Origin: a phage | Strand: one strand, 5' to 3' | Sequence record: PZ527900.1 | DNA length: 44,330 bases | In this document: piece after piece, positions 1 to 44,330 of the stretch | Numbering within the stretch: position 1 is the first letter of the stretch | Layout of the letters: the number at the start of each line of letters is the position of its first letter | Program-made: the position numbers and the translations under genes | The notes under the pieces: generated by a model | Seen by the model: only the letters and a program-made list of their open reading frames with translations | The model's database searches: none | Told to the model about the DNA's origin: nothing

Positions 1-403
1 TATCTAACCTAGGTCGAGTGCGTAGTGCTAAGGGCGTGCTCAAGGAGTTCATTCAAGATAACGGATACGTTGCCGTGATGTTAGGTGCTGGTGTGCGTAA
101 ACTGGTACACCGCTTAGTGGCTGTAGCATTTGTAGCTAATCCAGAAGGGAACCAGAGGTTAATCATAAAGACCATGTGCGCCATCACAATATGGCAGTTA
201 ACCTTGAATGGGTTACACGACAAGAGAATATCGATCACTCAAACAACATTACTACCTTCCGTTTAAGAAACGAAATAACAGGTGAAGTTGTAGAAGGGCG
301 TAATTTGGCAGCCTTCGCTAAAGAGCGAGGTTTAATTTATCCCAATCTCAATAAAGTAAATACAGGTGTGCGTCGTTCGCATAAAGGATGGGTAAAAGCA
401 TGA
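1..403 (+). CDS. HNH homing endonuclease, continuation of the ORF that starts at 44233; reading frame broken by a 1-nt indel near 148-152 (ORF pieces 18-266 and 176-403)
   Basis: Frame 0 gives VSNLGRVRS...GYVAVML...VHRLVAVAFVANPEG; the +2 frame continues EVNHKDHVRHHNMAVNLEWVTRQENIDHS, a His-Asn-His motif. Neither frame alone gives a full-length protein. Confidence 0.6.
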
Positions 404-2388
404 GCATTATTCAGAACGTTGGTTGTCCTGAGTGCATGAAAAACAACCACGATAAATCGCAGAACCACTTGATGATTTTCGAAGATGGTGCGGGTTACTG
501 CAATCGTTCACATTTCCATGACAATGGCAGACCATATTACCACAAGCCAGAAGGCGGCATTGAAATAACCGAATTACCTATTACTGGCAACATCAAATAT
601 ACACCTTCTCAATTCAAAGAGGTGGAGAAGGAAGGGAAGATAAGCGACCCTAAACTACGCGCCATCGCACTTGGCGGTATGCGTATGAAAGACCGCTGGG
701 AGGTTATGAATGAGCAAGAAAGGGCAGACCAAGAAGCAGAATGGAAACTTGATGTTGAATGGTTCCGCACGCTTAAGCGTAAGAACCTTGTTTCCAGACA
801 CATTCGCGGCGACATTTGCGCATTGTATGATGTACGTGTCGGACACGATGAAGAGGGTAGAGTCTCACGGCATTACTACCCACGCTTCGAGAAGGGTGAG
901 CTAGTAGGTGCCAAGTGCCGTACTTTACCTAAAGATTTTAAGTTTGGACACCTAGGTAAACTCTTTGGTATGCAAGACCTTTTCGGGATGAATACTTTGT
1001 CTCACGTGTTAGACAAGGGAAGACGAAAGGATTGCTTGCTTATTGTAGGTGGTGAACTTGATGCACTAGCAGCCCAGCAGATGCTACTTGATTCTGCCAA
1101 GGGCACTAAGTGGGAAGGGCAACCTTATCATGTATGGTCTGTTAACAAGGGGGAGTCTTGCCTTGAAGAAATAGTGCAGAACCGTGAACACATTGCCCAA
1201 TTCAAAAAGATTATTTGGGGTTTTGATGGAGATGAGGTAGGGCAGAAGCAGAATCAGCAAGCGGCTCGCCTGTTTCCCGGCAAATCCTATATTCTTGAGT
1301 ACCCTTCTGGTTGCAAAGATGCTAACAAGGCATTGATGGCTGGCAAGGCTAAAGAGTTTGTGGATGCTTGGTTTAATGCAAAATCATCTGATGAAGTCTT
1401 TGGTAGCCAGATTAAATCTATCGCATCTCAAAGGGATAAGTTGAAGGCTGCACGACCAGAGCAAGGGCTGTCATGGCCTTGGCCTAAGCTGAATAAGGTA
1501 ACACTGGGTATTCGTAAGAACCAGCTTATTATTGTAGGTGCAGGCTCTGGTGTAGGTAAGACCGAGTTCCTTCGTGAAGTAGTTAAGCACCTCATCGAAG
1601 AACATGGTGAATCTGTAGGTATCATTTCTACGGAAGACCCGATGGTCAAGGTATCCCGTGCTTTTATCGGTAAGTGGATTGATAAGCGCATTGAACTACC
1701 GCCAACCAACGACCCGAAAGAGGATGGATACCGCGAGGTGTTCGACTATACCGAGGAAGAAGCTAACGCTGCCATTGACTATGTAGCTGATACAGGGAAG
1801 CTGTTTGTGGCTGACCTAGAAGGTGATTATTCAATGGAGAAGGTAGAGCAGACTTGCCTTGAGTTTGAAGCTATGGGTATTTCTAATATCATCATTGATA
1901 ACTTAACGGGGATTAAACTAGATGAGCGTGCTTTTGGTGGGAAGGTTGGTGCACTTGATGAATGCGTCAAGCGGATTGGTACTATCAAAGACCGACACCC
2001 AGTTACTATATTCCTTGTATCACACCTTACACGTCCTGCGGGGAACCGCACCCAGCACGAAGAAGGTGGCGAGGTTATCCTTTCTGACTTCCGAGGCTCA
2101 GGCGCTATCGGATTCTGGGCATCTTACGCCTTGGGGATTGAGCGTAACACAAGAGCTGAAACGCTTGACGAAAGGACTACCACGTACATCTCGTGTGTCA
2201 AAGATCGCGACCAAGGTATCTTCACCGGAACCAAGATTATGCTTAAGGGTGACATTCAAACCGGTCGTTTGAGAGAACCACAGGCTAGAACAAGGTCATT
2301 TGATACAGGTGAAGCAAGGCAACAAGAAGTGCCTGATTTACCGGACACTATAGAAGAGACAACCTTTGATGATGAACAGGAGTTTTGA
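388..2388 (+). CDS. DNA primase/helicase (T7 gp4-like)
   Basis: N-terminal Cys-rich zinc ribbon (CPEC...YCNRSH), Walker A GAGSGVGKTEF, helicase motifs SHLTRPAGNRTQHEEGG and DFRGSGAIGF, acidic C-terminus ending DDEQEF. In-frame ATG at 400 is an alternative start. Confidence 0.9.
   Translation: MGKSMSIIQNVGCPECMKNNHDKSQNHLMIFEDGAGYCNRSHFHDNGRPYYHKPEGGIEITELPITGNIKYTPSQFKEVEKEGKISDPKLRAIALGGMRMKDRWEVMNEQERADQEAEWKLDVEWFRTLKRKNLVSRHIRGDICALYDVRVGHDEEGRVSRHYYPRFEKGELVGAKCRTLPKDFKFGHLGKLFGMQDLFGMNTLSHVLDKGRRKDCLLIVGGELDALAAQQMLLDSAKGTKWEGQPYHVWSVNKGESCLEEIVQNREHIAQFKKIIWGFDGDEVGQKQNQQAARLFPGKSYILEYPSGCKDANKALMAGKAKEFVDAWFNAKSSDEVFGSQIKSIASQRDKLKAARPEQGLSWPWPKLNKVTLGIRKNQLIIVGAGSGVGKTEFLREVVKHLIEEHGESVGIISTEDPMVKVSRAFIGKWIDKRIELPPTNDPKEDGYREVFDYTEEEANAAIDYVADTGKLFVADLEGDYSMEKVEQTCLEFEAMGISNIIIDNLTGIKLDERAFGGKVGALDECVKRIGTIKDRHPVTIFLVSHLTRPAGNRTQHEEGGEVILSDFRGSGAIGFWASYALGIERNTRAETLDERTTTYISCVKDRDQGIFTGTKIMLKGDIQTGRLREPQARTRSFDTGEARQQEVPDLPDTIEETTFDDEQEF
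2334..2360 (+). promoter_or_regulatory. phage RNAP promoter P12, intragenic
   Basis: GATTTACCGGACACTATAGAAGAG inside the 3' end of the primase-helicase gene; the codons encode PDLPDTIEET. Confidence 0.6.
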
Positions 2389-2549
2389 TGGAAATTATTA
2401 AACCAGTATTGAATATCGGTATTGACATCCTATTCATGCTTATGATTGCAGATTATGCTGCACGCTATGGATTCAAGAAAGCAGTGAAACTTATCATTGC
2501 ATCTGGTTTTATTATGTCAATGTTCTTTATTGTAACACGGTTTATCTAG
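2388..2549 (+). CDS. small hydrophobic protein (53 aa)
   Basis: ATG overlaps the helicase stop (TGATG); AGGAG 5 nt upstream; product MEIIKPVLNIGIDILFMLMIADYA... is membrane-like. Below the 60-aa ORF-track cutoff. Confidence 0.45.
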   Translation: MEIIKPVLNIGIDILFMLMIADYAARYGFKKAVKLIIASGFIMSMFFIVTRFI

Positions 2550-2566
2550 TGTATTTATCAGGGCTT

Positions 2567-2582
2567 GTCTCACATGCGAGAC
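2567..2582. repeat. 16-bp palindrome variant GTCTCACATGCGAGAC (copy 1 of 6, one mismatch)
   Basis: Extended stem GGGCTTGTCTCACATGCGAGACAGGCTC followed by TTATT; lies between the 53-aa ORF and gene 2622. Confidence 0.7.
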
Positions 2583-2621
2583 AGGCTCTTATTAAGTACA
2601 TTAAATAACTGGAGATTGATT

Positions 2622-3305
2622 ATGTGTAAATTAGTATTGAATGTAGGTGACAAGGTTCGTAATGTAAACAAGTATTCCCCTTACAAGGGGGAGGTCGGTG
2701 TAGTAATCAATGAAGACAAAGATATTTACTATGTACGTTACCAACAAAGCCAGGCAGAACAAGGATATCTTAAACTTAGTGCTCACAAACATCTTACAAA
2801 GATTGAAGAACCAACACATCAATGCAAGTGTGTACATGATGAGATTTGCGATAAGTGTGCTAGCCAGATGCAGAAAATGGTATTGCATCACCACATGTAC
2901 AGAGGTGGTATTCAAACCTTAGCAGAGTATATGGCAGAAAGAAAAACCACACTCAAGAAGGAGCGCCGCAATGTAATCACTGGTAAGACTCAAAGTGAAA
3001 TGATTAAGCAGTGCGGTACTGCATTAGGTGTTACACAGTTTAACACCCGTGCTCTAGGTAAATCGACAGGACAAGCTATGGTAAAGATTGGTGAAGCTAT
3101 GATGCACCCAAATGTACCTGTGCGAATCGCGGATGTGGACCATGCAATCACAGAACATGGCACACCTCGTCATGTAGCTAATAAGAACTTTGCAGCTATA
3201 GTTAATCATATTATCAAGAAGCAAGGTTTACTTGGCTTTATTGTTAATGAAGCTCATCTAGTCTACTGCCCTATCGTTACTGAAGAAACCTACGTGAATA
3301 TCTAA
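2622..3305 (+). CDS. hypothetical protein (227 aa); Cys/His-rich middle segment
   Basis: ATG at 2622 has GGAG 7 nt upstream; the ORF-track start at 2565 lies inside a palindrome hairpin and is unlikely. Segment HQCKCVHDEICDKC suggests metal binding. Confidence 0.6.
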   Translation: MCKLVLNVGDKVRNVNKYSPYKGEVGVVINEDKDIYYVRYQQSQAEQGYLKLSAHKHLTKIEEPTHQCKCVHDEICDKCASQMQKMVLHHHMYRGGIQTLAEYMAERKTTLKKERRNVITGKTQSEMIKQCGTALGVTQFNTRALGKSTGQAMVKIGEAMMHPNVPVRIADVDHAITEHGTPRHVANKNFAAIVNHIIKKQGLLGFIVNEAHLVYCPIVTEETYVNI

Positions 3306-3314
3306 GGAGTTACT

Positions 3315-3542
3315 ATGGCTACTAAAGTTTTAATATGTAAGACTGAAATAACACCTACAGGTTTAGCATATGGGGTGGTAACACCTTTTGGAGTTAAGCC
3401 TTATTTTATTAAAGAACTTGCAATTGTAGGTGCTGCTGCCTCTACATCGTTTCAGCAAGAATTGAGAGGTAAGCAGACAGAGTGGGAGTTCCGTCAGAAG
3501 AATAAAGTTGTAGGGTTTTTCATGGTGGAGGCTGAACGCTAA
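3315..3542 (+). CDS. hypothetical protein (75 aa)
   Basis: ORF with AAGGAG upstream, tightly packed with neighbours. Confidence 0.5.
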   Translation: MATKVLICKTEITPTGLAYGVVTPFGVKPYFIKELAIVGAAASTSFQQELRGKQTEWEFRQKNKVVGFFMVEAER

Positions 3543-3543
3543 T

Positions 3544-3792
3544 ATGTCTAAACACAGCCTTAAGATGTTTGATGGTCATGAAGATCTGCAAGCACAAATC
3601 ACTAACCAAGCCTTCCTGTTTGCACAGCTAACTATGGCTGAAGCAAAGAAGAATAGCCTGACGCGTGAGCAGGTTATCAAAGAGGCAACTTGGGAGCCAC
3701 ACCAAGGTAAATACATGGGCCAGAAATTAACTGTAACACGCAGTCGTGGTGCTACTCGTCGTATCAAAAACCACAGAAGTGGTGCTCGCTAG
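3544..3792 (+). CDS. hypothetical protein (82 aa)
   Basis: ORF starting 2 nt after the previous stop (translational coupling). Confidence 0.5.
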   Translation: MSKHSLKMFDGHEDLQAQITNQAFLFAQLTMAEAKKNSLTREQVIKEATWEPHQGKYMGQKLTVTRSRGATRRIKNHRSGAR

Positions 3793-3857
3793 TCGATAAG
3801 TCAAGGGTTGTCCAACGTGTTGGACAGCCTCTTTATCATATTGATCGGAGGTATTAA

Positions 3858-4010
3858 ATGACTAAGTTTACTATGCAAGACCTCATTAAACTACGTGATG
3901 AAATAGAATCACCGGAAGTTAATACAGAGTTTCACTACATTGATCCACGAGATAAACGAGAGATACCTGACTATCAGATTGAGACGGAGTTAATGTATGA
4001 AGACTATTAA
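3858..4010 (+). CDS. hypothetical acidic protein (50 aa)
   Basis: GGAGG 5 nt upstream of ATG 3858; below the ORF-track length cutoff. Confidence 0.4.
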   Translation: MTKFTMQDLIKLRDEIESPEVNTEFHYIDPRDKREIPDYQIETELMYEDY

Positions 4011-4215
4011 GCTAAGTAAGGTTTGCTCTTGCGGTAAAGGCTATCGTAGTCGTATTGATGGTAAGTGCGGACATTGCAGGTCTAAGAAAGAGGCTGCTTT
4101 GTTTGATAAGTACCACAATGAATTAGCATATAACTATCCTCATCTAACACCTAATTCTTTATTAGGGCTTGGTTATAGGGCTAAATACTTTGGGGCCATC
4201 TATGAAATCAATTGA
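3997..4215 (+). CDS. hypothetical small Cys-rich protein (72 aa)
   Basis: GGAG 7 nt upstream of ATG; CSCGKGYRSRIDGKCGHC looks like a zinc ribbon; overlaps neighbours by about 14 nt on each side. Confidence 0.4.
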   Translation: MKTIKLSKVCSCGKGYRSRIDGKCGHCRSKKEAALFDKYHNELAYNYPHLTPNSLLGLGYRAKYFGAIYEIN

Positions 4216-6748
4216 TTGGAAGAAGGAAGCAGAAGGCCGTATCCTTGTAATGGATGCGGAAGCTAAAGGTCTGCTTGACGCTATCCGCTATGGTCATCGT
4301 GAAGATGTACACATCATTTGCTGCATGGATTTGCTTACTACCGAGGAATTCTTATTCTTCGACCCTTATGAGATGCGTGACCCTGAAGCAAGGGAACGCC
4401 TGAAGGAGTGGGAAGGCCATCAAGATGGTGACTTAGTTGATGGTGTTAACTTCCTGAAGCACTGTGAAGCTATCGTGTCGCAAAACTTCCTAGGGTATGA
4501 CGGTCTTCTCTTTGAGAAAGCATTCCCTACTATCTGGAAGGGCTTTAACTATACCGAGAGGCGAGGCAAGGGCAGACTCCGCGCTGACCTGTGTCCTGTG
4601 CGAGTCATGGACACGCTGGTCATGAGCCGCCTGTTAAACCCAGACAGACGCCTTCCTCCTCAAGCATACGCCAAAGGTATGGGTAACGTCGCCCCTCACT
4701 CAATTGAAGCGCACGGCATCCGTATAGGCCGTTATAAGCCGGAGAATGAGGATTGGTCTAAGCTAACCGACCACATGGTTCACCGTGTACGTGAAGACGT
4801 GGCGATTGGTCGTGACCTTTTTCTCTGGCTATTTAACGGAGAATGGACGGAGCACAAACGCCGTGGCGTGAACAAACGTACTGGCCTAGGCATTGAGACT
4901 GCCTTCCACATGGAGTCCATTGTAGCGCTGGAGATGAGCCGTCAGGCCGAGCGCGGATTCCGTCTGGACATCGACAAAGCGTTAGCGCGATGCGAAGAAC
5001 TGGACGCTAAGATTGATGAGACAGTCGCAGCGTTCCGCCCACACATGCCTATGCGTATCAAGTCTAAACCTTTTAAACCGGAAGAAAAGAATGAAGTATG
5101 CCAACGCGCAAATGAGTATGGAGCTAGCAACAATATACCTACTGTCCTTGACCCCTCTCACTTTCTCCACGCAGAGAGACGAGGAGATCGCAAGACAGTA
5201 TGGAGTGTCACTACTAAGTCTGGTGATTGGTCGGCTAGTGTCAAGAAAGACTTTCCTCACCTTAGAGGAAACCGTAATGACACGCCAAGTATCAAGTGGG
5301 TCGGCGCTTACTCTCCCGTCACGTTTGAAGAGATTCCCTTGGGAAACCGTGACACCGTTAAGCAAGTGCTCTATGACTATGGCTGGAAAGGTGTGGAGTT
5401 CAACGATACAGAGCAAGCCTATCTTGATGAAAATGGTGTCCTACCTAAGCCTTGGAGTGGTAAGATAAATGAAAAGTCCCTTACTCTATGGCAAGAAAGA
5501 GCCGCACGTGAAGGTAAAACAGTCCCTGATTGGTGCTTGGGTATCGCTGCATGGTACATACTCGTATCCCGTCGTGGTCAGATACTCAACCGTGGTGACG
5601 TTGAAGCCTTCAACGAGAAAGGAACGTGGCCCTCTCAGGCTGGTGTACGAAAGTGTCGCGGCCTTGTACCTGTAGCATTTAACAAGGAGTTAGGAATCAA
5701 TGCGCAGCAATACTACGAGAGGTATGGGTGTTGGCCTACGTCTGACAAGGATGACGGAGAGTGGCGTGTGCCAGCTATTGCTATTAGCATTGGCACTTCT
5801 ACGTTCCGTATGCGTCATCGTAACGTGGTTAATATTCCTGCCCGTGGCTTGTATCCTTTACGTGATTTATTCATAGCAGGGAAAGGAAAGTTAATCCTTG
5901 GTTGTGATGGTGCAGGTCTTGAACTGCGTGTACTGTCTCACTTCATGAATGACCCTGAGTACCAAGATATTGTACTGCATGGTGATATCCATACTCATAA
6001 CCAGATGAAGGCCGGTCTTCCTAAGCGTGACATGGCGAAGACATTTATATATGCATTCCTCTATGGTTCTGGTATAGCTAACCTTGCAGCAGTATGTGGT
6101 GTTACTGAGGAAGAAATGAAGGAGGTTGTGGCAAGATTTGAGATTGAACTACCATCTCTTGCACGTCTTCGTGAAAATGTTATTGCACAAGGTAACAAGT
6201 TTGGCTACCTGCAAGCACCTGATGGACATTGGGGTCGCATCCGCATGTCTGGTGGTGAACTTAAAGAGCACACTATGCTTAACGTATTGCTACAGATGAC
6301 GGGTTCTTTGTGTATGAAATATGCATTGGTCAAGGCGTTTGCAGTGATGCGCAAGGAAGGTGTGGCTCTAGATAGCATGGGGAACCCTTGTGGTGTAGCT
6401 AACGTGCACGATGAGATTCAGATGGAAGTACCCGAAGATGAAGTCTTGTATCTTAACTACGACCTACCTTTCACCTTAGAGGGTTTTGAAACAGAGAAGG
6501 CTGCTGTGAAAGCAGTGTTCGATGCAGAGGAGAAACGCGTGCATGTGGACTCTGAGGGGCGCATGTGGTCTGCTGCTAACTTGGTTGAAGTGGATGCTGA
6601 TGCTGGTGTACTCCATTGCCAGCGTCGTTATCACCGTGCAGGGCATATCATTGCAGACGCCATGACTTGGGCTGGTCAGTATCTTAAGATGCGTTGCCCG
6701 ATGGCAGGCGAGTACAAGATTGGTGCAAGTTGGAAGGAGACACACTGA
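4202..6748 (+). CDS. DNA polymerase, family A (T7 gp5-like)
   Basis: Exo motif VMDAEAKGL; Pol I motif A LILGCDGAGLELRVLSHF; motif B RDMAKTFIYAFLYGSG; motif C VHDEIQMEV. Start set at the first in-frame ATG (MKSIDW...); the ORF-track start at 4169 is TTG. Confidence 0.9.
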   Translation: MKSIDWKKEAEGRILVMDAEAKGLLDAIRYGHREDVHIICCMDLLTTEEFLFFDPYEMRDPEARERLKEWEGHQDGDLVDGVNFLKHCEAIVSQNFLGYDGLLFEKAFPTIWKGFNYTERRGKGRLRADLCPVRVMDTLVMSRLLNPDRRLPPQAYAKGMGNVAPHSIEAHGIRIGRYKPENEDWSKLTDHMVHRVREDVAIGRDLFLWLFNGEWTEHKRRGVNKRTGLGIETAFHMESIVALEMSRQAERGFRLDIDKALARCEELDAKIDETVAAFRPHMPMRIKSKPFKPEEKNEVCQRANEYGASNNIPTVLDPSHFLHAERRGDRKTVWSVTTKSGDWSASVKKDFPHLRGNRNDTPSIKWVGAYSPVTFEEIPLGNRDTVKQVLYDYGWKGVEFNDTEQAYLDENGVLPKPWSGKINEKSLTLWQERAAREGKTVPDWCLGIAAWYILVSRRGQILNRGDVEAFNEKGTWPSQAGVRKCRGLVPVAFNKELGINAQQYYERYGCWPTSDKDDGEWRVPAIAISIGTSTFRMRHRNVVNIPARGLYPLRDLFIAGKGKLILGCDGAGLELRVLSHFMNDPEYQDIVLHGDIHTHNQMKAGLPKRDMAKTFIYAFLYGSGIANLAAVCGVTEEEMKEVVARFEIELPSLARLRENVIAQGNKFGYLQAPDGHWGRIRMSGGELKEHTMLNVLLQMTGSLCMKYALVKAFAVMRKEGVALDSMGNPCGVANVHDEIQMEVPEDEVLYLNYDLPFTLEGFETEKAAVKAVFDAEEKRVHVDSEGRMWSAANLVEVDADAGVLHCQRRYHRAGHIIADAMTWAGQYLKMRCPMAGEYKIGASWKETH

Positions 6749-6903: not shown

Positions 6904-7281
6904 ATGTCTATGGTAACTACTCTGGTTTTCGTAGCTCAATACTTTCGTGGTCTGGCTAATAAATTCAAGGCCAAGGCTATCAAAGCTATTGAGTCCCGCA
7001 TCGAGGCAGTACAGGAGGAGCAGGTTGAAGTTGAGGAACATCGCAGCTCTCAAATGATTGACTGCCACAATCGCTACTATGCCTCTCGTGATGACCTCAA
7101 TGCACGTCAAGTCAAAGAGGTTGAAGAGATGTTAGCACGTCACCAGCAAGAGCGTGACAACCTGAAAGCGGATTTCGAAGAGAACAAGGCATCCATTGCG
7201 CTTGTACATCAAGCTGCATCTGACAGCCTGAAGAAAGAGATTGTTATGCTGGAAATGGAGTTAGACAATCTGACCAAGTAA
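6904..7281 (+). CDS. hypothetical coiled-coil protein (125 aa)
   Basis: AGGAG 8 nt upstream; Glu/Lys/Gln-rich heptad-like sequence; lies between P1 and P2. Confidence 0.6.
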   Translation: MSMVTTLVFVAQYFRGLANKFKAKAIKAIESRIEAVQEEQVEVEEHRSSQMIDCHNRYYASRDDLNARQVKEVEEMLARHQQERDNLKADFEENKASIALVHQAASDSLKKEIVMLEMELDNLTK

Positions 7282-7302
7282 TTACTGGACACTATAGAAC
7301 AA
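7278..7302 (+). promoter_or_regulatory. phage RNAP promoter P2
   Basis: TAATTACTGGACACTATAGAAC; overlaps the stop of the preceding gene. Confidence 0.7.
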
Positions 7303-8307: not shown

Positions 8308-8526
8308 ATGAAAGTACAAATCGTAACCCTGCACTGCAAGCGTGGCATTACTACCCTCGGCGGCACAACTTTTCACTCCTTCTCTGAAGGGGAGACATAC
8401 GCCGACCTGCACTACATCTGGCGCGATGGACAGCACGTGGTGAACTACAGCGACCCAGCTACTGGGAAACGCCACGGCGTGTCGCTTCCGGCGCATGACA
8501 TTGCGCAGGTGAACACAGTTTTATAA
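8308..8526 (+). CDS. hypothetical protein (72 aa)
   Basis: Strong RBS TAAGGAGGA; followed immediately by a palindrome and promoter P3. Confidence 0.55.
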   Translation: MKVQIVTLHCKRGITTLGGTTFHSFSEGETYADLHYIWRDGQHVVNYSDPATGKRHGVSLPAHDIAQVNTVL

Positions 8527-8630: not shown

Positions 8631-8999
8631 ATGTTCGCTATTGAAACTATCGTAAACCGTGTTGTTAAAGGTGCTGCTCTGGTATCCGTTGAGTCTTTCA
8701 TTATCGTCGATGAAGCTGGCTCTCTGGTCGCTGGCACTAAAGCCTATGACACCCGTGAAGAAGCTCAGGCTAAGATTGACAGCATGGGTAACTTCGCTGC
8801 TGGTCTGGAGTTCGCTCGTGCTTGCTTCCCTGAGCAGGCTGACAAAGCTCAAATTGGTAAGGCTAACATCGTAGCTGAATATCTGGACTGGATTGCTGCT
8901 GGTAAACCAGTGAAAGAAGTTAAAGCTGCTGAAGAAGCTGAAGTAGTAGAAGACGTAGCTGCACCGGAAGTACCGGTAAGCGAAGAGGAGGAGTTTTGA
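8631..8999 (+). CDS. hypothetical protein (122 aa), probably highly expressed; acidic C-terminus ending EEEEF
   Basis: AAAGGAG RBS; own promoter (P3) and hairpin terminator (9058); codon choice dominated by GCT, CTG, GAA, GTT, GGT. Confidence 0.65.
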   Translation: MFAIETIVNRVVKGAALVSVESFIIVDEAGSLVAGTKAYDTREEAQAKIDSMGNFAAGLEFARACFPEQADKAQIGKANIVAEYLDWIAAGKPVKEVKAAEEAEVVEDVAAPEVPVSEEEEF

Positions 9000-10724: not shown

Positions 10725-11724
10725 GCTTCGCAGCTTGTACAAAGACTCCGAGGTACTTGATGCAATCGAGCAAGCTACCGACGAGAAAGGTAATGTTAAC
10801 TACAATGAGATGGCACGTATATTATCGTGTCACCCTGTGGGTAAGAAGATTACCCGCCAATTGGCTCGATACTGGCATGGTCAATTCAAGAAGACCAAGA
10901 AGAATGGTGATTATTACCAGACTCTTCTGCAAGAAGATAAGCGTATCAAAGAAGAGCGTAAGCTCAGGACTCCTGACCGCTACGAGGATTTGGCTATTGT
11001 ACCATTGCCTGACTCGCCTCATCGAAGTGTACTGGTAATACCTGATACTCATGCACCTTATGAGCACCCAGATGCTTTAGAATTCCTTGCAGCAGTTGCA
11101 GCACGTTATCGTCCAGACACTGTGGTTCATTTGGGGGATGAGGCGGATAAACATGCCTTGTCATTCCACGATTCGGACCCAAATCTAGATAGTGCTGGCA
11201 TGGAGTTAGAAAAGGCTCGTGTCTTCATGCACAAGTTGCACAAGATGTTCCCTGTGATGCGCCTGTGTCATTCTAATCACGGCTCTATGCACTTCCGTAA
11301 GGCGAGCGCCAAAGGTATCCCTGTGCAATATCTGCGTACCTACCGTGAAGTCTTCTTCCCAAATGGAGGTGGCGACCAGTGGGATTGGCAGCACACTCAT
11401 GTACTTGAATTGCCGAACGGTGAACAGGTAGCGTTCAAGCATCAACCTGCTGGCTCTGTCCTAGCAGATGCAGCACATGAGCGTATGAATCTAGTGTGTG
11501 GACATTTGCACGGTAAGATGTCTGTGGAGTATGCACGTAATACTCATGAGCAATACTGGGCGGTGCAGGGTGGCTGTCTGATTGATGAGTCGTCTCGTGC
11601 ATTCGCCTATGGTCGTGAGTCTAAGTACAAGCCAGCATTAGGTTGTGTGGTTATTCTGGATGGTGTGCCGCACATTGTCCCGATGCAAACCAATAGTGAC
11701 AATCGCTGGATTGGCAAGATTTAG
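10693..11724 (+). CDS. calcineurin-like metallophosphatase
   Basis: Motifs VIPDTHAPYEH (DxH), HLGDEADKH (GDxxD) and HSNHG (GNH-like). Start uncertain: ATG 10693 has a weak RBS, whereas in-frame TTG 10717 has AAGGAGG 6 nt upstream. Confidence 0.7.
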   Translation: MQERRRLKLGKLRSLYKDSEVLDAIEQATDEKGNVNYNEMARILSCHPVGKKITRQLARYWHGQFKKTKKNGDYYQTLLQEDKRIKEERKLRTPDRYEDLAIVPLPDSPHRSVLVIPDTHAPYEHPDALEFLAAVAARYRPDTVVHLGDEADKHALSFHDSDPNLDSAGMELEKARVFMHKLHKMFPVMRLCHSNHGSMHFRKASAKGIPVQYLRTYREVFFPNGGGDQWDWQHTHVLELPNGEQVAFKHQPAGSVLADAAHERMNLVCGHLHGKMSVEYARNTHEQYWAVQGGCLIDESSRAFAYGRESKYKPALGCVVILDGVPHIVPMQTNSDNRWIGKI

Positions 11725-11791: not shown

Positions 11792-12130
11792 ATGTTACAG
11801 CATCATTATGACAATACCTGTATGGCCTGCTTAGGAGAAGGTGAAGGGTACCTGCATACTTGCAAAGGCCCGGTTAAGTCCAACATGTTGGACAACAATA
11901 TGGTTACTAAGCCGAAGCACTATGAGTTCTTCGAAGGTGTAGAGGCAATCACTATCATTGCCCGTAGCATGACCGAGAAGCAATTCGCTGGGTATTGCAT
12001 GGGTAACGCTTTGAAGTATCGCCTGCGTGCAGGTAAGAAATTCAACACTGAAGAAGACCTGAAGAAAGCAGACTACTACAAAGAGTTATTCCAGAAGCAT
12101 CGTCACGAATGTATTGATGAGGATATTTGA
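11792..12130 (+). CDS. DUF3310-like phage protein (112 aa)
   Basis: GGAGGAG 5 nt upstream of ATG; PKHYEF...GNALKYRLRAGKK...DLKKADYY pattern typical of the DUF3310 family (recalled). Confidence 0.55.
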   Translation: MLQHHYDNTCMACLGEGEGYLHTCKGPVKSNMLDNNMVTKPKHYEFFEGVEAITIIARSMTEKQFAGYCMGNALKYRLRAGKKFNTEEDLKKADYYKELFQKHRHECIDEDI

Positions 12131-17830: not shown

Positions 17831-17838
17831 TACCTATG

Positions 17839-17872
17839 CCCTATCTACCTTGCGTAGGTAGGGTTCTTTTTG
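17839..17872 (+). terminator. hairpin plus U-tract terminator after the capsid gene
   Basis: CCCTATCT...AGGTAGGG stem followed by TTCTTTTTG. Confidence 0.6.
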
Positions 17873-28920: not shown

Positions 28921-29115
28921 ATGATTAACTCCGAACTGGTAGACAATGGGATGAAGCTGGCGCCACCTGCATTAGTCTCAGGTGGGTACTTCCTCGGTAT
29001 CAGTTGGGATAATTGGGTGTTAATAGCAACATTCATTTATACCGTGTTGCAAATAGGGGACTGGTTTTATAATAAGTTCAAGATTTGGAGGAAGAAGCGT
29101 GAGCGTACACAATAA
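28921..29115 (+). CDS. class II holin (T7 gp17.5-like)
   Basis: ISWDNWVLIATFIYTVLQIG parallels T7 holin LSLNEWFYVAAIAYTVVQIG; one transmembrane segment and a basic C-terminus. Confidence 0.75.
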   Translation: MINSELVDNGMKLAPPALVSGGYFLGISWDNWVLIATFIYTVLQIGDWFYNKFKIWRKKRERTQ

Positions 29116-29401
29116 ACATGCAGCTACAGAAGATGAGGTTGGCATCCTACATGGTGCTATTACCAAGATGTTCAACAAGAAAGCACAGGCAATACTGGAC
29201 ACTATAGAAGGGGACCCAGATGCAGCACTAGCTTTGGTATCCGGTAAGGATATTGGTGCCATGTGTAAGTGGGTTCTTGACAATGGAATTACAGCCACAC
29301 CTGCTGCACAGCAGGAAGAATCCAAGCTGTCTAAGCGCCTCAAGGCTATCCGAGAGGCATCCAGTGGCAAGATTATTCATTTTACAAAAGAGGATAACTA
29401 A
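29099..29401 (+). CDS. terminase small subunit (by position)
   Basis: 100-aa ORF directly upstream of the large terminase; GTG start with GGAGG upstream. Contains promoter P6. Confidence 0.6.
   Translation: MSVHNKHAATEDEVGILHGAITKMFNKKAQAILDTIEGDPDAALALVSGKDIGAMCKWVLDNGITATPAAQQEESKLSKRLKAIREASSGKIIHFTKEDN
29188..29214 (+). promoter_or_regulatory. phage RNAP promoter P6, intragenic
   Basis: AATACTGGACACTATAGAAGGGG inside the small terminase gene; the codons encode ILDTIEGD. Confidence 0.6.
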
Positions 29402-31299
29402 TGGCTAAGGCAAGAGAATCACAAGCGGAGGCTCTTGCCAGATGGGAGATGCTACAGGAATTACAGCAGACCTTTCCTTATACAGCGGAAGGTTTGCTCC
29501 TCTTTGCAGACACAGTTATTCATAACTTGATTGCAGGCAACCCTCATCTGATTCGTATGCAGGCTGATATATTGAAGTTCCTATTCTATGGACACAAGTA
29601 TCGCCTCATCGAAGCGCCCCGTGGTATCGCTAAAACTACATTATCAGCAATCTATACAGTCTTCCGTATCATCCATGAACCACATAAGCGTATCATGGTT
29701 GTATCTCAAAACGCCAAGCGAGCAGAGGAAATCGCTGGCTGGGTGGTGAAAATCTTCCGTGGCCTAGACTTCCTTGAGTTTATGCTACCGGATATCTACG
29801 CAGGGGACCGTGCCTCTGTTAAGGCATTTGAGATTCATTACACCCTACGTGGCAGTGACAAGTCGCCTTCTGTATCTTGTTACTCGATCGAAGCAGGTAT
29901 GCAGGGTGCTCGTGCTGATATTATCTTAGCGGACGATGTTGAGTCGATGCAGAATGCTCGTACCGCCGCAGGCCGTGCATTGCTTGAGGAGTTGACCAAG
30001 GAGTTTGAATCTATCAACCAGTTTGGTGATATTATCTACCTTGGTACCCCTCAGAACGTAAACTCTATCTACAACAACCTGCCTGCTCGTGGCTACTCGG
30101 TTCGCATCTGGACTGCACGTTACCCTTCAGTGGAGCAGGAGCAATGTTATGGTGACTTCCTTGCACCTATGATTGTGCAAGATATGAAGGACAACCCAGC
30201 ACTTCGCTCAGGTTATGGTTTGGACGGTAACAGCGGAGCACCTTGTGCCCCTGAAATGTATGATGATGACGTCCTTATTGAGAAGGAAATCTCGCAGGGT
30301 GCTGCTAAGTTCCAGCTCCAATTCATGCTTAACACTCGCATGATGGATGCTGACCGCTACCCTCTACGGCTGAATAACCTTATCTTTACCTCATTCGGTA
30401 CGGAGGAAGTCCCTGTGATGCCTACATGGAGCAATGACTCTATTAACATCATTGGCGATGCACCTAAGTATGGCAACAAGCCTACAGACTTCATGTATAG
30501 ACCTGTGGCCCGTCCCTATGAATGGGGTGCTGTTACTCGCAAGATCATGTATATTGACCCAGCGGGTGGCGGTAAGAACGGAGATGAAACGGGTGTAGCG
30601 ATTGTCTTCCTGCACGGAACATTCATTTATGTGTATCAGTGCTTCGGTGTACCGGGCGGATACCGAGAATCGTCCCTGAATCGCATTGTGCAGGCCGCAA
30701 AGCAGGCAGGGGTTAAAGAGGTATTCATTGAGAAGAACTTTGGTCATGGCGCGTTTGAGGCCGTAATTAAGCCGTACTTTGAACGGGAGTGGCCTGTCAC
30801 TCTGGAGGAGGATTACGCCACAGGACAGAAGGAATTGCGTATCATTGAGACGCTGGAGCCACTCATGGCGGCGCACAGGCTCATCTTTAATGCCGAGATG
30901 GTCAAGTCTGACCTTGAGTCAGTACAGCACTATCCACTTGAACTACGCATGTCCTACAGCCTTTTCAATCAAATGTCGAACATCACGATTGAGAAGAACA
31001 GCCTCCGGCATGATGACCGCTTAGACGCGCTGTATGGCGCTATACGGCAATTAACTTCTCAGATAGACTATGACGAGGTTACACGGATTAATCGCCTCAG
31101 AGCGCAGGAGATGCGCGATTACATCCAAGCCATGAACACACCTCACCTACGCAGGGCAATGCTCTATGGGGATTATGGAACTGAGCGAAGAGTGACCAAC
31201 ACCTCTGTAGCGATGCAGCAGCGGGTTTACGGTCGGAACTACCGGAATAAGTCCTCCAATAGAAATACAATTTCTGCAAGGATTTCAAGGACTTATTAA
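29401..31299 (+). CDS. terminase large subunit (T7 gp19-like)
   Basis: 632 aa; ATPase P-loop-like PRGIAKTT and Walker B ADIILADDVES; C-terminal nuclease region. Confidence 0.9.
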   Translation: MAKARESQAEALARWEMLQELQQTFPYTAEGLLLFADTVIHNLIAGNPHLIRMQADILKFLFYGHKYRLIEAPRGIAKTTLSAIYTVFRIIHEPHKRIMVVSQNAKRAEEIAGWVVKIFRGLDFLEFMLPDIYAGDRASVKAFEIHYTLRGSDKSPSVSCYSIEAGMQGARADIILADDVESMQNARTAAGRALLEELTKEFESINQFGDIIYLGTPQNVNSIYNNLPARGYSVRIWTARYPSVEQEQCYGDFLAPMIVQDMKDNPALRSGYGLDGNSGAPCAPEMYDDDVLIEKEISQGAAKFQLQFMLNTRMMDADRYPLRLNNLIFTSFGTEEVPVMPTWSNDSINIIGDAPKYGNKPTDFMYRPVARPYEWGAVTRKIMYIDPAGGGKNGDETGVAIVFLHGTFIYVYQCFGVPGGYRESSLNRIVQAAKQAGVKEVFIEKNFGHGAFEAVIKPYFEREWPVTLEEDYATGQKELRIIETLEPLMAAHRLIFNAEMVKSDLESVQHYPLELRMSYSLFNQMSNITIEKNSLRHDDRLDALYGAIRQLTSQIDYDEVTRINRLRAQEMRDYIQAMNTPHLRRAMLYGDYGTERRVTNTSVAMQQRVYGRNYRNKSSNRNTISARISRTY

Positions 31300-31320
31300 T
31301 TACTGGACACTATAGAAGGA
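31296..31320 (+). promoter_or_regulatory. phage RNAP promoter P7
   Basis: TAATTACTGGACACTATAGAAGGA overlapping the terminase stop codon. Confidence 0.75.
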
Positions 31321-41144: not shown

Positions 41145-43772
41145 ATGCAAGATTTACATGCTATCCAGCTTCAATTAGAGGAAGAGATGTTTAACGGCGG
41201 TATTCGTCGCTTTGAAGCAGACCAACAGCGACAAATTGCATCAGGTAATGAGTCTGATACGGCTTGGAATCGCCGCCTATTGTCTGAATTAATCGCGCCG
41301 ATGGCTGAAGGTATTCAGGCATACAAGGAAGAGTATGAAGGTAAAAGAGGTCGTGCACCGCGTGCCCTTGCTTTCATTAACTGCGTAGAAAACGAAGTGG
41401 CAGCATATATCACGATGAAAATCGTAATGGATATGCTTAACACTGATGTTACCTTGCAGGCCATTGCCATGAATGTAGCGGACCGCATCGAAGACCAAGT
41501 GCGCTTCAGTAAGCTAGAAGGTCACGCCGCAAAATACTTTGAGAAAGTGAAGAAGTCGCTTAAGGCAAGTAAGACTAAGGCATATCGCCATGCGCACAAT
41601 GTAGCAGTAGTGGCTGAAAAGTCTGTAGCTGACCGTGACGCGGATTTCTCCCGCTGGGAGGCATGGCCCAAAGACACCTTGTTGCAAATAGGTACTACCT
41701 TGCTGGAAATCTTGGAGAATAGCGTATTCTTCAACGGGCAGCCTGTTTTCCTTCGTACCTTGCGCACTAACGGCGGCAAACATGGTATTTATTACTTACA
41801 AACTAGCGAACACGTAGGTGAATGGATAACGGCCTTCAAAGAGCACGTAGCGCAACTGAGTCCTGCCTATGCACCTTGCGTTATCCCTCCGCGTCCTTGG
41901 GTGTCTCCTTTTAATGGCGGTTTTCACACCGAGAAGGTAGCAAGCCGTATCCGTCTAGTTAAAGGCAACCGTGAGCACGTCCGTAAGCTGACCAAAAAGC
42001 AAATGCCAGCGGTATACAAGGCTGTTAACGCCTTACAGGCCACTAAATGGCAAGTCAATAAGGAAGTATTGCAGGTTGTTGAAGATGTTATTCGTCTCGA
42101 CCTTGGTTATGGTGTGCCTTCATTTAAGCCACTCATCGACCGCGAGAACAAGCCAGCTAATCCCGTGCCGTTAGAGTTCCAGCATCTAAGAGGCCGTGAA
42201 CTTAAAGAGATGCTAACGCCGGAACAATGGCAAGCCTTCATTAACTGGAAAGGCGAGTGCACCAAGCTGTATACCGCTGAGACTAAGCGCGGCAGCAAAT
42301 CGGCGGCAACCGTCCGCATGGTCGGGCAGGCCCGTAAATACAGCCAGTTTGACGCTATATACTTCGTGTATGCACTGGACAGCCGCAGCCGCGTCTACGC
42401 GCAATCTAGCACGCTCTCCCCGCAATCAAACGATTTAGGCAAGGCATTGCTCCGCTTTACCGAAGGGCAACCGCTAGATAGCGCTGAGGCGCTTAAATGG
42501 TTTTTGGTGAACGGGGCTAATAGCTGGGGTTGGGATAAGAAAACTTTTGACGTGCGCACCGCTAACGTGCTGGAGGGTGAGTTCCAAGATATGTGCCGCG
42601 ACATTGCAGCCGACCCGCTGACCTTCACTCAATGGGTGAATGCCGATTCGCCTTATGGCTTCCTTGCATGGTGCTTTGAATATGCGCGTTATCTGGATGC
42701 ACTGGATGAAGGTAAGCAAGACCAATTCATGACACACCTACCCGTCCATCAAGATGGTAGTTGCTCTGGTATCCAGCACTATAGCGCGATGTTACGCGAT
42801 GAAGTAGGTGCGAAAGCGGTAAACCTTAAGCCGTCCGACGAGCCGCAAGACATTTACGGTGCGGTTGCGCAGGTTGTTATACAGAAGAATTACGCCTACA
42901 TGAATGCAGACGATGCAGTAACTTTCACATCTGGCAGCGTCACCCTTACAGGTGCGGAATTGCGTAGCATGGCTAGCGCATGGGATATGATTGGAATCAC
43001 TCGCGGCTTAACCAAAAAGCCGGTTATGACCTTGCCATATGGTTCCACCCGCTTAACCTGCCGTGAGTCGGTTATTGATTACATCGTTGATTTGGAAGAA
43101 AAAGAGGCACAAAGGGCTATTGCAGAAGGGCGGACGGCGAATCCGGTGCACCCTTTTGATAATGACCGTAAAGACTATCTGACACCGGGCGCAGCTTATA
43201 ACTATATGACAGCCTTAATTTGGCCTTCAATCTCTGAAGTTGTTAAAGCCCCTATAGTGGCGATGAAAATGATTCGCCAGCTTGCACGATTTGCAGCTAA
43301 AAGAAATGAAGGGTTAGAATACCCCTTACCTACTGGTTTCATCTTGCAACAAAAGATCATGGCAACTGATATGCTACGCGTTTCTACTTGCTTGATGGGT
43401 GAAATCAAGATGAGTCTACAGATTGAAACGGATGTAGTGGATGAAACGGCAATGATGGGCGCTGCGGCCCCTAACTTTGTTCACGGGCATGATGCTAGTC
43501 ACCTTATCCTGACTGTATGTGACCTCGTGGATAAAGGTATTACATCCATTGCAGTTATTCATGACTCTTTTGGCACTCATGCAGGCCGCACCGCAGACCT
43601 GCGGGATAGCTTAAGGGCAGAAATGGTAAAAATGTATCAAGGTCGTAATGCCCTGCAAAGCCTGCTAGATGTACATGAAGAGCGTTGGCTAGTAGATACC
43701 GGCATCCAAGTGCCGGAGCAAGGGGAGTTTAACCTTGAAGAGATCTTAGTTTCTGACTATTGCTTCGCATAA
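41145..43772 (+). CDS. single-subunit DNA-directed RNA polymerase (SP6/T7 family)
   Basis: 875 aa; [42 protein letters not shown] and C-terminal ...DYCFA; N-terminus [32 protein letters not shown] matches SP6 RNAP as recalled. Confidence 0.95.
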
Positions 43773-43844: not shown

Positions 43845-43860
43845 GTCTCACATGTGAGAC
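43845..43860. repeat. 16-bp palindrome GTCTCACATGTGAGAC (copy 5 of 6)
   Basis: Directly abuts promoter P10. Confidence 0.8.
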
Positions 43861-43862
43861 TT

Positions 43863-43887
43863 ATATTTACCGGACACTATAGGAGAG
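43863..43887 (+). promoter_or_regulatory. phage RNAP promoter P10
   Basis: ATTTACCGGACACTATAGGAGAG. Confidence 0.7.
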
Positions 43888-44021: not shown

Positions 44022-44037
44022 GACCTAGGTTGTCTCA
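44022..44037. repeat. 16-bp palindrome GTCTCACATGTGAGAC (copy 6 of 6)
   Basis: Directly abuts promoter P11. Confidence 0.8.
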
Positions 44038-44050
44038 CATGTGAGACTTG

Positions 44051-44232: not shown

Positions 44233-44330
44233 ATGGAATTGTGGCGCAACATAGAAGGTCATGAAGGTTATGAGGTATCTAACCTAGGTCGAGTGCGTAG
44301 TGCTAAGGGCGTGCTCAAGGAGTTCATTCA
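44233..44330 (+). CDS. N-terminus of the HNH homing endonuclease that continues at window position 1
   Basis: ATG 3 nt after the previous stop; MELWRNIEGHEGYEVSNLGRVRS... is in frame with ORF 18-266 through the 55-nt overlap. Confidence 0.6.
   Translation, partial: MELWRNIEGHEGYEVSNLGRVRSAKGVLKEFI
44276..44330. other. 55-nt duplicate of window positions 1-55 (circular-assembly overlap)
   Basis: Exact identity of the last 55 nt with the first 55 nt, inside a coding sequence. Confidence 0.9.

Follow-up and report, generated by a model that had tools for sequence, protein, structure and literature searches.

Can a promoter for a phage-encoded RNA polymerase reside inside a coding sequence, and does it then constrain the peptide read from the same DNA? 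This question is raised by two sites, P12 and P6, that the first-pass annotation had noticed within the primase/helicase gene and the small terminase gene of the DNA studied here (PZ527900.1). The window, by which we mean the whole stretch of 44,330 nucleotides that was analysed, is a circularly permuted genome of an SP6-like phage, a K1-5/K1E-like Vectrevirus.

The phage RNA polymerase, its promoters and two sites inside genes

The genome encodes a single-subunit RNA polymerase (RNAP) that is 98% identical to its K1-5 counterpart and 85% identical to that of SP6. This gene, the two embedded sites and the genes that hold them are positioned as follows.

41145..43772, + strand: gene for the cognate single-subunit RNA polymerase (Pfam RNA_pol and RPOL_N)
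388..2388, + strand: primase/helicase gene, 666 aa (PHROG 239, E=1.7e-186, residues 3-649; Pfam DnaB_C, residues 361-608)
2336..2358, + strand: P12, predicted promoter of 23 bp (−17 to +6), +1 = G at 2353; helicase codons 650-657
29099..29401, + strand: small terminase gene (terS), T7 gp18 family (PF11123, E=3.9e-16; PHROG 891, E=1.7e-23)
29190..29212, + strand: P6, promoter-like site of 23 bp, +1 = G at 29207; terS codons (A) I L D T I E G

The promoter consensus of this genome, ATTTACTGGACACTATAGAAGAG, spans roughly 23 bp from −17 to +6. We searched the window with a 23-position weight matrix that was trained only on the 10 non-embedded sites, P12 and P6 being left out, and recovered exactly 12 promoter-like 23-mers, all of them on the + strand. 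The lowest-scoring of the 12 reached 23.9 bits, compared with 4.8 bits for the best non-site 23-mer on either strand; the maxima obtained from shuffled sequences (n=50) had a mean of 6.1 bits, the largest being 19.9. The core GGACACTATAGAAG occurs in seven exact and five near copies, again all on the + strand, with exact copies at 2343 and 29197. When up to three mismatches were allowed, 12 matches were found against 4.2 expected, a number reached in none of 100 shuffles. Matches in a scan for sigma-70 promoters, by comparison, were no more numerous than in shuffled sequences.

All 12 sites are co-oriented with the genes, and two of them, P12 and P6, lie wholly within ORFs. For the promoters at 7280 and 31298, 2 nt belong to the TAA of the preceding gene as well; for that at 11719 the overlap is 6 nt. 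Tandem promoters at 43865 and 44053 follow the RNAP gene and are separated by an AT/purine-rich spacer.

P12 and P6 have the same initial sequence, GAAG, with the G at +1; with SP6 RNAP, GAA is the +1 to +3 sequence that gives the highest activity (PMC7429497). Judged by their sequence, P12 and P6 are probably recognition sites for the phage-encoded SP6/K1-5-type single-subunit RNAP that are situated inside coding sequence. We infer initiation at these sites, its strength and its effect on gene expression, since the literature that could be searched yielded no transcriptomic or transcription start site papers on Molineuxvirinae, and neither transcripts nor mapped 5' ends from this phage or a relative of it.

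The site in the primase/helicase gene and its counterparts among relatives

P12 (ATTTACCGGACACTATAGAAGAG) scores 38.8 bits, the third best value in the genome, and matches the consensus at 22 of 23 positions. It is located wholly inside the primase/helicase ORF (388..2388), in its final 53 nt, and the last base of the stop codon is positioned 35 nt downstream of its +1 (2353). Read in frame, the codons GAT TTA CCG GAC ACT ATA GAA GAG specify DLPDTIEE; the dual coding that had been proposed for this site, with D-T-I-E as the in-frame peptide, was thus borne out. The conserved domain match of the helicase stops at residue 649, and the P12-coded residues lie beyond it in an acidic tail (residues 650-666) whose final residues are ..DDEQEF.

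We compared the helicase tail across the promoter specificity classes represented by the window/K1-5, SP6/K1-ULIP33, Pm5460, PP1, phD2B and Era103. A syntenic site is present in all eight whole genomes, which cover at least five specificity classes, and in each case it follows the phage's own consensus. Scored with a matrix derived from each genome's own other promoters, the sites reach 28-38 bits, but only about 3-20 bits under the matrices of the other classes; the +1 is found 35 nt before the end of the ORF in five of the eight genomes. The peptides encoded by the tail vary among the relatives (DLPDTIEE, ELGDTIEE, ELETTIEE, DLGRTIEQ, EIGATIEQ, ELPPSIEEE), and they do so together with the promoter consensus of each phage. 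This co-variation lends strong support to the earlier proposal that P12 constrains the encoded peptide. The site has been lost in one SP6-like contig (IMG/VR), and variants of P12 carry T at −7 (K1-5) or A at −10 (two loci). Among Vectrevirus sequences, synonymous positions show no greater conservation in P12 than elsewhere in the 3' end of the helicase gene (p = 0.46). The comparison of these genomes identifies P12 as an old, syntenic feature.

Two of the positional homologues deserve a closer description. In the Proteus phage vB_PmiP_Pm5460 (KP890822), a promoter at 8915-8937 in the primase/helicase gene is annotated in GenBank, as predicted by PHIRE. Like P12, it has its +1 35 nt before the end of the ORF, shares the reading frame, and has a gene 9.5-like ORF and then a hairpin downstream; unlike P12, it conforms to the consensus AATTAGAGACCACTATAGAAGAA and encodes ELETTIEE. 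In SP6, the group's type phage, the site (8411-8433; AATTAGGTGACACTATAGAAGAG) lies in gene 10, the primase/helicase gene, and encodes ELGDTIEE. Its −12 to −7 segment reads GGTGAC, in contrast to C(T/C)GGAC in the phage studied here, and its +1 is positioned 29 nt before the end of the ORF. The SP6 records are without promoter features, as are the GenBank entries for K1-5, K1E, ACG-C91, PP1, phD2B, Era103 and K1-ULIP33; only that of Pm5460 contains them.

Phage T7 provides a further precedent. Its class II promoter phi4c (gene 4; RefSeq NC_001604) is, like P12, a promoter for a single-subunit RNAP that lies wholly in the primase/helicase coding sequence. It departs from the consensus where the reading frame demands it, with CTAAAG in place of CTATAG, and a TAG stop codon is thereby avoided; phi4c and phi1.1A begin with CAAT instead of TAAT, as P6 does. 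The position of phi4c is not homologous to that of P12, since its +1 (12671) is 594 nt from the end of gene 4 (13265) as opposed to 35 nt for P12, and polymerase specificity and reading frame differ as well. T7 gp4 has an acidic tail that ends in F, as does the helicase of this phage. A related economy of overlapping signals is seen at T7 phi1.3, 1.5, 1.6, 2.5, 4.3, 9 and 17, where the preceding gene's stop codon supplies the TAA at −17 to −15, but there only a stop codon is shared and not sense codons as in P12 and P6. The embedded layout has precedents in T7 and among the relatives of this phage, and the present genome is an ordinary, well-supported case of it. What we add, modestly, is that peptide and promoter co-vary across genera; in the accessible literature, we found no statement on such co-evolution at the helicase tail.

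A broader reading, to which we lean slightly, is that throughout the SP6-like subfamily the helicase tail is a passive read-out of promoter specificity. Each switch in RNAP specificity (at least five classes) would have forced three to five matching residue changes in a replisome protein, and these would have been tolerated because the promoter has just one frame that is open as well as acidic. In parallel, embedded promoters (in terS of Vectrevirus, and in gene 10/11 and gp36 of SP6-like phages) would have been born repeatedly, in the same frame, on D/E-x-I-E sequences.

The site in the small terminase gene

P6 (CAATACTGGACACTATAGAAGGG) scores 23.9 bits, the lowest value of the 12 sites; it matches the consensus at 19 of 23 positions and is off consensus at −17, −16 and −15. 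The 23-mer ends at 29212, so that the end given in the first-pass annotation (29214) lies 2 nt too far. P6 is located wholly inside ORF 29099..29401, the homologue of SP6 gene 40, within the conserved domain of the small terminase. Its codons ATA CTG GAC ACT ATA GAA GGG specify ILDTIEG, and the in-frame D-T-I-E and the dual coding claimed for this second site were therefore also confirmed. Two further features bear on its possible role.

29401..31299, + strand: large terminase gene (TerL; PHROG 17672, E=1.9e-241) with its own GAGGA ribosome-binding site at 29390-29394
31298..31320, + strand: next promoter after P6 (matrix scan), with a 2-nt overlap with the TerL stop codon

All 17 Vectrevirus terS alleles that we inspected retain the P6 core, exactly or with one mismatch, and it is missing from every relative outside Vectrevirus (Zindervirus, Klebsiella, Proteus, Pectobacterium, Lelliottia and Erwinia relatives). 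Fourteen of these alleles, including some that are only 80% identical in their flanks, carry the exact core ATACTGGACACTATAGAAG, while each of the remaining three differs at one core position. At this place, sister clades encode ILDAIE with non-promoter codons, and Thr in place of Ala is found only in the promoter-bearing clade. Given the peptide and the codon usage of the genome, the set of codons at P6, which includes two rare ATA codons, has a probability of 2.9e-4. The claim that P6, too, constrains its peptide is supported by the Thr for Ala exchange and by the improbable codons, although more weakly than for P12; the ancestral ILDAIE was already close.

Synonymous diversity amounts to 0.097 within P6 and 0.261 outside of it, and of 75 blocks, the one with the core is the least diverse at synonymous sites. 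One of five synonymous sites in the core is variable, compared with 47 of 69 outside (one-sided p = 0.049, a marginal value obtained with 16 distinct alleles); with the first 14 alleles the same test had not been significant (p = 0.18). A burst of substitutions at the core between Vectrevirus and the outgroups was not seen, there being no excess divergence (p = 0.11 and 0.74), and we dropped the claim of demonstrable positive selection for the creation of P6, since divergence was not concentrated in the core. The sequence data are at most suggestive of selection that maintains P6.

Could P6 instead be a fortuitous near-consensus match produced by drift, which may fire weakly but is unselected and without a role for the terminase genes, so that P12 would be the only real selected promoter? 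We consider this unlikely, but it is the alternative with the most in its favor. P6 has the lowest score, with three upstream mismatches; the Klebsiella-phage outgroup sequence ATCCTTGACGCTATCGAGG already matches at 14 of 19 core positions; excess divergence is absent and the conservation tests just described are marginal; none of the GenBank records listed annotates a promoter at this position; and relatives contain further borderline embedded matches, for instance at 29393 in SP6 and at 27167 in K1-ULIP33. Against this stands the rarity of the match, since a score of 23.9 bits should turn up about 0.006 times in a genome (2^-23.9 x 88,660 positions) and was attained in none of the 50 shuffles. 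Moreover, the exact core persists in terS alleles despite many synonymous differences in their flanks, and its block is the least diverse of all. With a full −13 to +4 core and a cognate RNAP, firing would be expected whether the site is selected or not.

Our preferred reading of P6 is that of an internal late promoter of more recent origin, acquired by the Vectrevirus lineage. It could have arisen through about 5-8 mostly synonymous substitutions together with the Ala to Thr exchange, on a terS sequence that was already core-like. P6 transcripts would start 194 nt before the TerL ATG (29401), in about 12.6 kb of late genes otherwise without a promoter. No complete gene other than TerL lies between P6 and the next promoter, at 31298, which serves the genes beyond TerL, and the main contribution of P6 would thus be additional TerL transcripts. 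Its deviations from −17 to −15 probably make P6 weaker than the other promoters. A role of the terS site as a pac site was set aside: pac sites of headful phages are located in terS, whereas T7/SP6-type phages package from direct terminal repeats, and the records of the relatives annotate terminal repeats.

The proposed role of P12 and what the embedded sites mean

The DNA downstream of P12 contains the following features.

2377..2381, + strand: AGGAG Shine-Dalgarno sequence of gene 9.5, read in the sequence; located in the helicase codons Q-E-F and 6 nt upstream of the gene 9.5 ATG (2388)
2388..2549, + strand: gene 9.5 homologue, 53-aa hydrophobic protein (PHROG 15806, E=2.4e-36); K1E has its annotated gene 9.5 in this position too
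2560..2589, + strand: strong hairpin right after gene 9.5 (−24.7 kcal/mol, z = −6.6)
3805..3830, + strand: hairpin between gene 11 and 11.5/12/DNA polymerase (terminator-like scan; −16.5 kcal/mol, z = −4.4)
4169..6748, + strand: DNA polymerase ORF (ORF list)

The first-pass annotation had P12 boosting the small genes before the DNA polymerase gene, and P6 giving TerL and the genes downstream an additional transcript start; both roles are plausible, with the refinement made above for P6 and a further one for P12. In our proposal, P12 would be an ancient middle-class promoter that occupies the acidic C-terminal tail of the primase/helicase, a segment under little constraint. With G2353 as the first transcribed nucleotide, the 35-nt leader, which is unstructured (−2.6 kcal/mol), would hold the gene 9.5 ribosome-binding site built of helicase codons. 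The ATG of gene 9.5 overlaps the helicase TGA (TGATG), making it the first gene of a P12 transcript, which would extend over genes 9.5, 10, 10.5 and 11. The matrix scan of this genome found P12 to be the only phage promoter between 44053 and 6817; it therefore probably drives not only the small genes but also the DNA polymerase gene, provided that the hairpins at 2560 and 3805 are leaky. The first of these, whose downstream tail is U-poor, could be a terminator or a processing site, and the Pm5460 record has a terminator at the equivalent place. It follows P12 by about 200 nt here, but by only about 50 nt in K1-5-type genomes, and could terminate much of the P12 output; the second is in the path of any P12 transcript to the polymerase gene. 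Helicase residues 650-657 would be whatever the promoter spells in its one usable acidic frame, because the DNA is selected as a promoter, and the tail peptide would have changed along whenever promoter specificity changed in evolution.

T7 uses RNAP promoters at origins, such as phi1.1A/B and secondary origins, and P12 might likewise act mainly in DNA replication, its transcripts priming or activating an origin. Its place between the helicase and polymerase genes would suit such a function, as would a strong hairpin 50-200 nt past the promoter that might limit mRNA output. We regard this as improbable, given that the tandem promoters at 43865 and 44053 are the more T7-like origin candidate, that the leader offers gene 9.5 a well-placed ribosome-binding site and start codon, and that P12 is the sole promoter upstream of the polymerase gene.

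Finally, the notion that the shared DNA reflects a functional D-T-I-E motif required by both proteins, the promoter likeness being secondary, draws on the presence of these residues in both proteins (DTIE occurs only at P12 and P6 in the proteome of roughly 12,300 codons) and again in gene 10 of relatives, but it is scarcely credible and was rejected on the grounds of co-variation and codon usage: the helicase-tail peptide is not conserved and tracks the promoter (DTIE, TTIE, RTIE, ATIE, AGIE, PSIE), small terminases of sister clades have DAIE, AAVE, DVIE or KEIE, the choice of codons given the peptide has a probability of 1.6e-4 to 2.9e-4, and the match extends past DTIE both upstream (Leu and Pro/Leu codons; in P12 also Asp) and downstream.

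P12 and P6 have practical consequences. Promoter scans of T7/SP6-like phages should cover more than intergenic DNA, given that in this genome the sole phage promoter upstream of the DNA polymerase operon lies within the helicase gene. Engineering that recodes, codon-optimises or C-terminally tags the primase/helicase or the small terminase would silently destroy a promoter; K1-5, K1E and SP6 serve as chassis, and K1E RNAP is employed in expression systems (PMC6412113). The current understanding of how these phages work is unchanged by these sites. For evolution, the helicase-tail site offers a clean natural example of regulatory DNA that dictates protein sequence through several specificity switches.

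Predicted promoters of the window and the two sites inside genes

Over most of its length the window is ~91% identical to K1E, K1-5 and many other genomes of Vectrevirus (Autographiviridae, Molineuxvirinae, SP6 group). The same 55 bases stand at both of its ends (1-55 = 44276-44330), an overlap of k-mer size that marks the window as a circularly permuted assembly, of unique length 44,275 bp, rather than the natural linear genome bounded by terminal repeats. Its single-subunit RNA polymerase (RNAP) is 98% identical to that of K1-5 and 85% identical to that of SP6. The following features are referred to below.

388..2388, + strand: primase/helicase ORF, holding all of P12 (PHROG 239, E = 1.7e-186; Pfam DnaB_C)
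2560-2589: strong hairpin after gene 9.5 (-24.7 kcal/mol)
4169-6748, + strand: DNA polymerase ORF
17838-17864: terminator-like hairpin after the major capsid gene
29099..29401, + strand: small terminase (terS) ORF, T7 gp18 family, holding all of P6 (PF11123; PHROG 891)
29401..31299, + strand: large terminase (TerL) ORF, next after terS (profile match)
41145-43772, + strand: single-subunit RNAP gene (Pfam RNA_pol and RPOL_N domains)

A search of both strands for the 14-mer GGACACTATAGAAG yielded exact copies at 2343, 6824, 8566, 16562, 29197, 31305 and 33647, and copies with one to three mismatches at 7287, 11726, 39767, 43872 and 44060. All 12 matches lie on the + strand; chance would give 4.2, and in 100 shuffles the count always stayed below 12. 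With a weight matrix of 23 positions (-17 to +6) made from the ten non-embedded sites only, P12 (2336-2358, + strand; predicted +1 at G2353) scored 38.8 bits and ranked third in the genome, while P6 (29190-29212, + strand; predicted +1 at G29207) scored 23.9 bits, the lowest of the twelve sites. The best 23-mer beyond these twelve reached 4.8 bits on either strand; in 50 shuffled genomes the top score was 6.1 bits on average and 19.9 at most.

The first-pass annotation had placed both sites inside coding sequences and had read their cores as DTIE. Both points hold: each site lies wholly within its ORF, and the codons are GAT TTA CCG GAC ACT ATA GAA GAG (P12) and, in the same frame, ATA CTG GAC ACT ATA GAA GGG (P6). 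Across the long ORFs of the + strand (~12,300 codons), DTIE has no third occurrence. One of the three frames of ATTTACTGGACACTATAGAAGAG is closed by CTA TAG; the other two spell F-T-G-H-Y-R-R or the acidic L-L/P-D-T-I-E-E. The acidic frame is used by every embedded site that we found in eight genomes (helicase tail, terS, gene 10/11 and SP6-type gp36). The earlier observation is real, and its interpretation is essentially right.

Several further arrangements were seen. Promoters 7280 and 31298 (named by start coordinate) overlap the TAA stop of the preceding gene by 2 nt and promoter 11719 extends 6 nt over an ORF end, a layout seen at the homologous positions of every one of the eight genomes compared. 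The palindrome GTCTCACATGTGAGAC (43846-43861, 44035-44050) stands a few bases 5' of each of the tandem promoters after the RNAP gene, which are separated by an AT/purine-rich spacer; Era103 and Pm5460 also have similar palindromes ahead of promoters. We take this layout to recall the T7 phi1.1A/B origin region. An HNH-type homing-endonuclease-like ORF (44234-44330, continuing into 56-403) separates the gene 8 homologue from the primase/helicase gene; it reads EGYEVSNLGRVRS and then, in a different frame, VNHKDHVRHHNMAVNLEWVTRQEN, and a frameshift apparently divides it into ORFs 18..266 and 176..403.

The helicase-tail site P12

We derived the promoter consensus of each of eight phages de novo from its whole genome and scored the helicase-tail 23-mer with a matrix built from that phage's other promoters.

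Table. Helicase-tail 23-mers, encoded peptides and own-matrix scores
Window: ATTTACCGGACACTATAGAAGAG, DLPDTIEE, 38.1 bits
K1-5: ATTTACCGGATACTATAGAAGAG, DLPDTIEE, 30.0 bits
SP6: AATTAGGTGACACTATAGAAGAG, ELGDTIEE, 35.2 bits
K1-ULIP33: ATTTAGGTGACACTATAGAACAA, DLGDTIEQ, 37.1 bits
Pm5460: AATTAGAGACCACTATAGAAGAA, ELETTIEE, 38.3 bits
PP1: ACTTAGGGCGGACTATAGAACAA, DLGRTIEQ, 36.4 bits
phD2B: AAATAGGGGCTACTATAGAACAG, EIGATIEQ, 31.6 bits
Era103: AATTACCACCCAGCATAGAAGAA, ELPPSIEE, 28.3 bits

Scored with the matrices of different specificity classes, these 23-mers reached no more than about -13 to 20 bits. In 5/8 genomes the distance from +1 to the ORF end is 35 nt, and metagenomic relatives carry further tail variants (e.g., PIVAGIEE from GGCGGGTATAGAAGAG). 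Sequence comparison indicates that the P12 site is old and syntenic and that the helicase-tail peptide follows promoter class. The proposal that the promoter constrains the peptide is thereby strongly supported at P12, since the tail co-varies with each phage's own consensus across the eight genomes. The homologue in one relative is already annotated: the GenBank record of Pm5460 has a PHIRE-predicted promoter at exactly this site.

P12 encodes helicase residues 650-657, and the conserved domain match stops at residue 649. The window's helicase tail is acidic (ending DDEQEF), like the Phe-terminated tail of T7 gp4. The acidic tail of T7 gp4 contacts DNA polymerase. A tail needing only acidity and flexibility would explain why it hosts a promoter that, in its usable frame, encodes peptides rich in Asp and Glu.

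Single core changes occur in the helicase-tail site of K1-5 and two other loci. The site appears to be dispensable, judged by one SP6-like contig that lacks it (IMG/VR 2706795336_000001, 3300-3870; tail PEEGEVTGADETQEF). This contig has an HNH-like ORF directly 3' of the helicase gene, and its embedded gene 11 site (ATTTAGGTGACACTATAGGTG) is nearer consensus than that of SP6 (TATTACGTGACACTATAGGTG), which may compensate for the lost promoter.

A P12 transcript would start at G2353 with a leader of 35 nt, predicted to be unstructured, in which the helicase codons CAG GAG provide AGGAG (2377-2381). Gene 9.5, whose ATG (2388) shares bases with the helicase TGA, encodes a hydrophobic protein (53 aa; PHROG 15806 match). 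Between hairpin 2560-2589 and the DNA polymerase gene lie genes 10, 10.5 and 11, then a second hairpin (3805-3830) and two small ORFs. The matrix scan found no phage promoter besides P12 between 44053 and 6817. An additional embedded promoter-like site is present in gene 10/11 of K1-5 (L057, 9010-9032), nine other Vectrevirus loci, SP6 (L059, 9112-9134) and K1-ULIP33; its Vectrevirus form, ATTTTGCCGACACTATAGAAGGT, likewise encodes D-T-I-E. The site is missing from the window, where gene 10 is a divergent allele (AACTTTGCAGCTATAGTTAATCA, ~3180-3206), so that P12 is here the last predicted promoter before the polymerase gene.

The related strong hairpins GGCTTGTCTCACATGCGAGACAGGC and GTCCAACRTGTTGGAC (8 matches vs. 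0.4 expected; e.g., 2560-2589, 3810-3825, 11878-11893) occur 3' of gene 9.5, ahead of the genes that lead up to DNA polymerase, and elsewhere; K1-5-type genomes have one only ~50 nt 3' of the P12 start site. They are candidate terminators or RNase III sites.

Origin and conservation of the terS site P6

Of 17 terS alleles compared within Vectrevirus, 14 contain ATACTGGACACTATAGAAG unchanged, some of them being only 80% identical to the window across the surrounding 91 nt; the other three each have one core difference. The outgroups were Zindervirus (SP6, SE29), K1-ULIP33-type and other Klebsiella phages, Pm5460, PP1, phD2B and Era103. None of them has a terS site of at least 12 bits, and the peptide at this position is ILDAIE, ILAAVE, ILDVIE or similar, in non-promoter codons. 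P6 therefore appears to be young; by parsimony it was gained at the base of Vectrevirus. Relative to its core of 19 positions, the closest outgroup sequences have 5-8 differences, each of them synonymous except a G to A (Ala to Thr).

That P6, too, constrains its peptide is supported less strongly. The Thr and promoter codons occur only in Vectrevirus, and the codon set has a probability of 2.9e-4 given the peptide and genome codon usage, because two rare ATA codons are used. Synonymous conservation is marginal: within Vectrevirus terS, synonymous diversity is 0.097 inside P6 vs. 0.261 outside, the block with the P6 core being the lowest of 75, and 1/5 synonymous positions vary in the core vs. 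47/69 elsewhere (one-sided p = 0.049; p = 0.18 in an earlier run with fewer alleles). Divergence from the outgroups showed no concentration in the core. Selective maintenance of P6 is thus suggested by these sequences, not decisively.

P6 deviates from consensus at -17, -16 and -15 (CAA, not ATT or AAT). T7 phi4c and phi1.1A likewise start CAAT, not TAAT. Upstream promoter positions matter less to T7-type polymerases.

Known systems and proposed late transcription

T7 phi4c (CAATCCGACTCACTAAAGAGAGA) is annotated in RefSeq inside gene 4, the primase/helicase gene, and is thus embedded like P12; in seven T7 promoters the TAA at -17 to -15 is the stop codon of the preceding gene, an overlap shared by the window at 7280 and 31298. 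Embedded phage-RNAP promoters are therefore of a known kind. The terS site carries no promoter feature in any of the GenBank records listed. Two points may be new: the co-variation, made explicit here, of helicase tail and promoter class, and the assignment of the terS site's origin to the Vectrevirus stem. As an embedded RNAP promoter with predicted initiation, P12 is well supported and P6 plausible.

Promoter-like sites of 22-30 bits occur in the SP6-type phages SP6 (L059, 29393-29415) and K1-ULIP33 (L063, 30316-30338 and 27167-27189), deep within internal virion protein and tail genes and in the same frame; Vectrevirus has none there.

The nearest promoter 5' of P6 is 16555, ahead of the major capsid gene, and the ~11.3 kb after the hairpin that follows this gene (tail, internal virion, holin and terS genes) contain no promoter. 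The predicted +1 of P6 lies 194 nt 5' of the ATG of TerL, a gene with a GAGGA ribosome-binding site of its own; the promoter that comes next, 31298, shares bases with the TerL stop codon. The extra message from P6 would hence be specific to TerL. In other lineages the internal late sites are different (e.g., in gp36 of SP6 and K1-ULIP33) or absent. Internal late promoters seem to have been gained independently in different lineages, and these differing sites fit a picture of lineage-specific add-on promoters.
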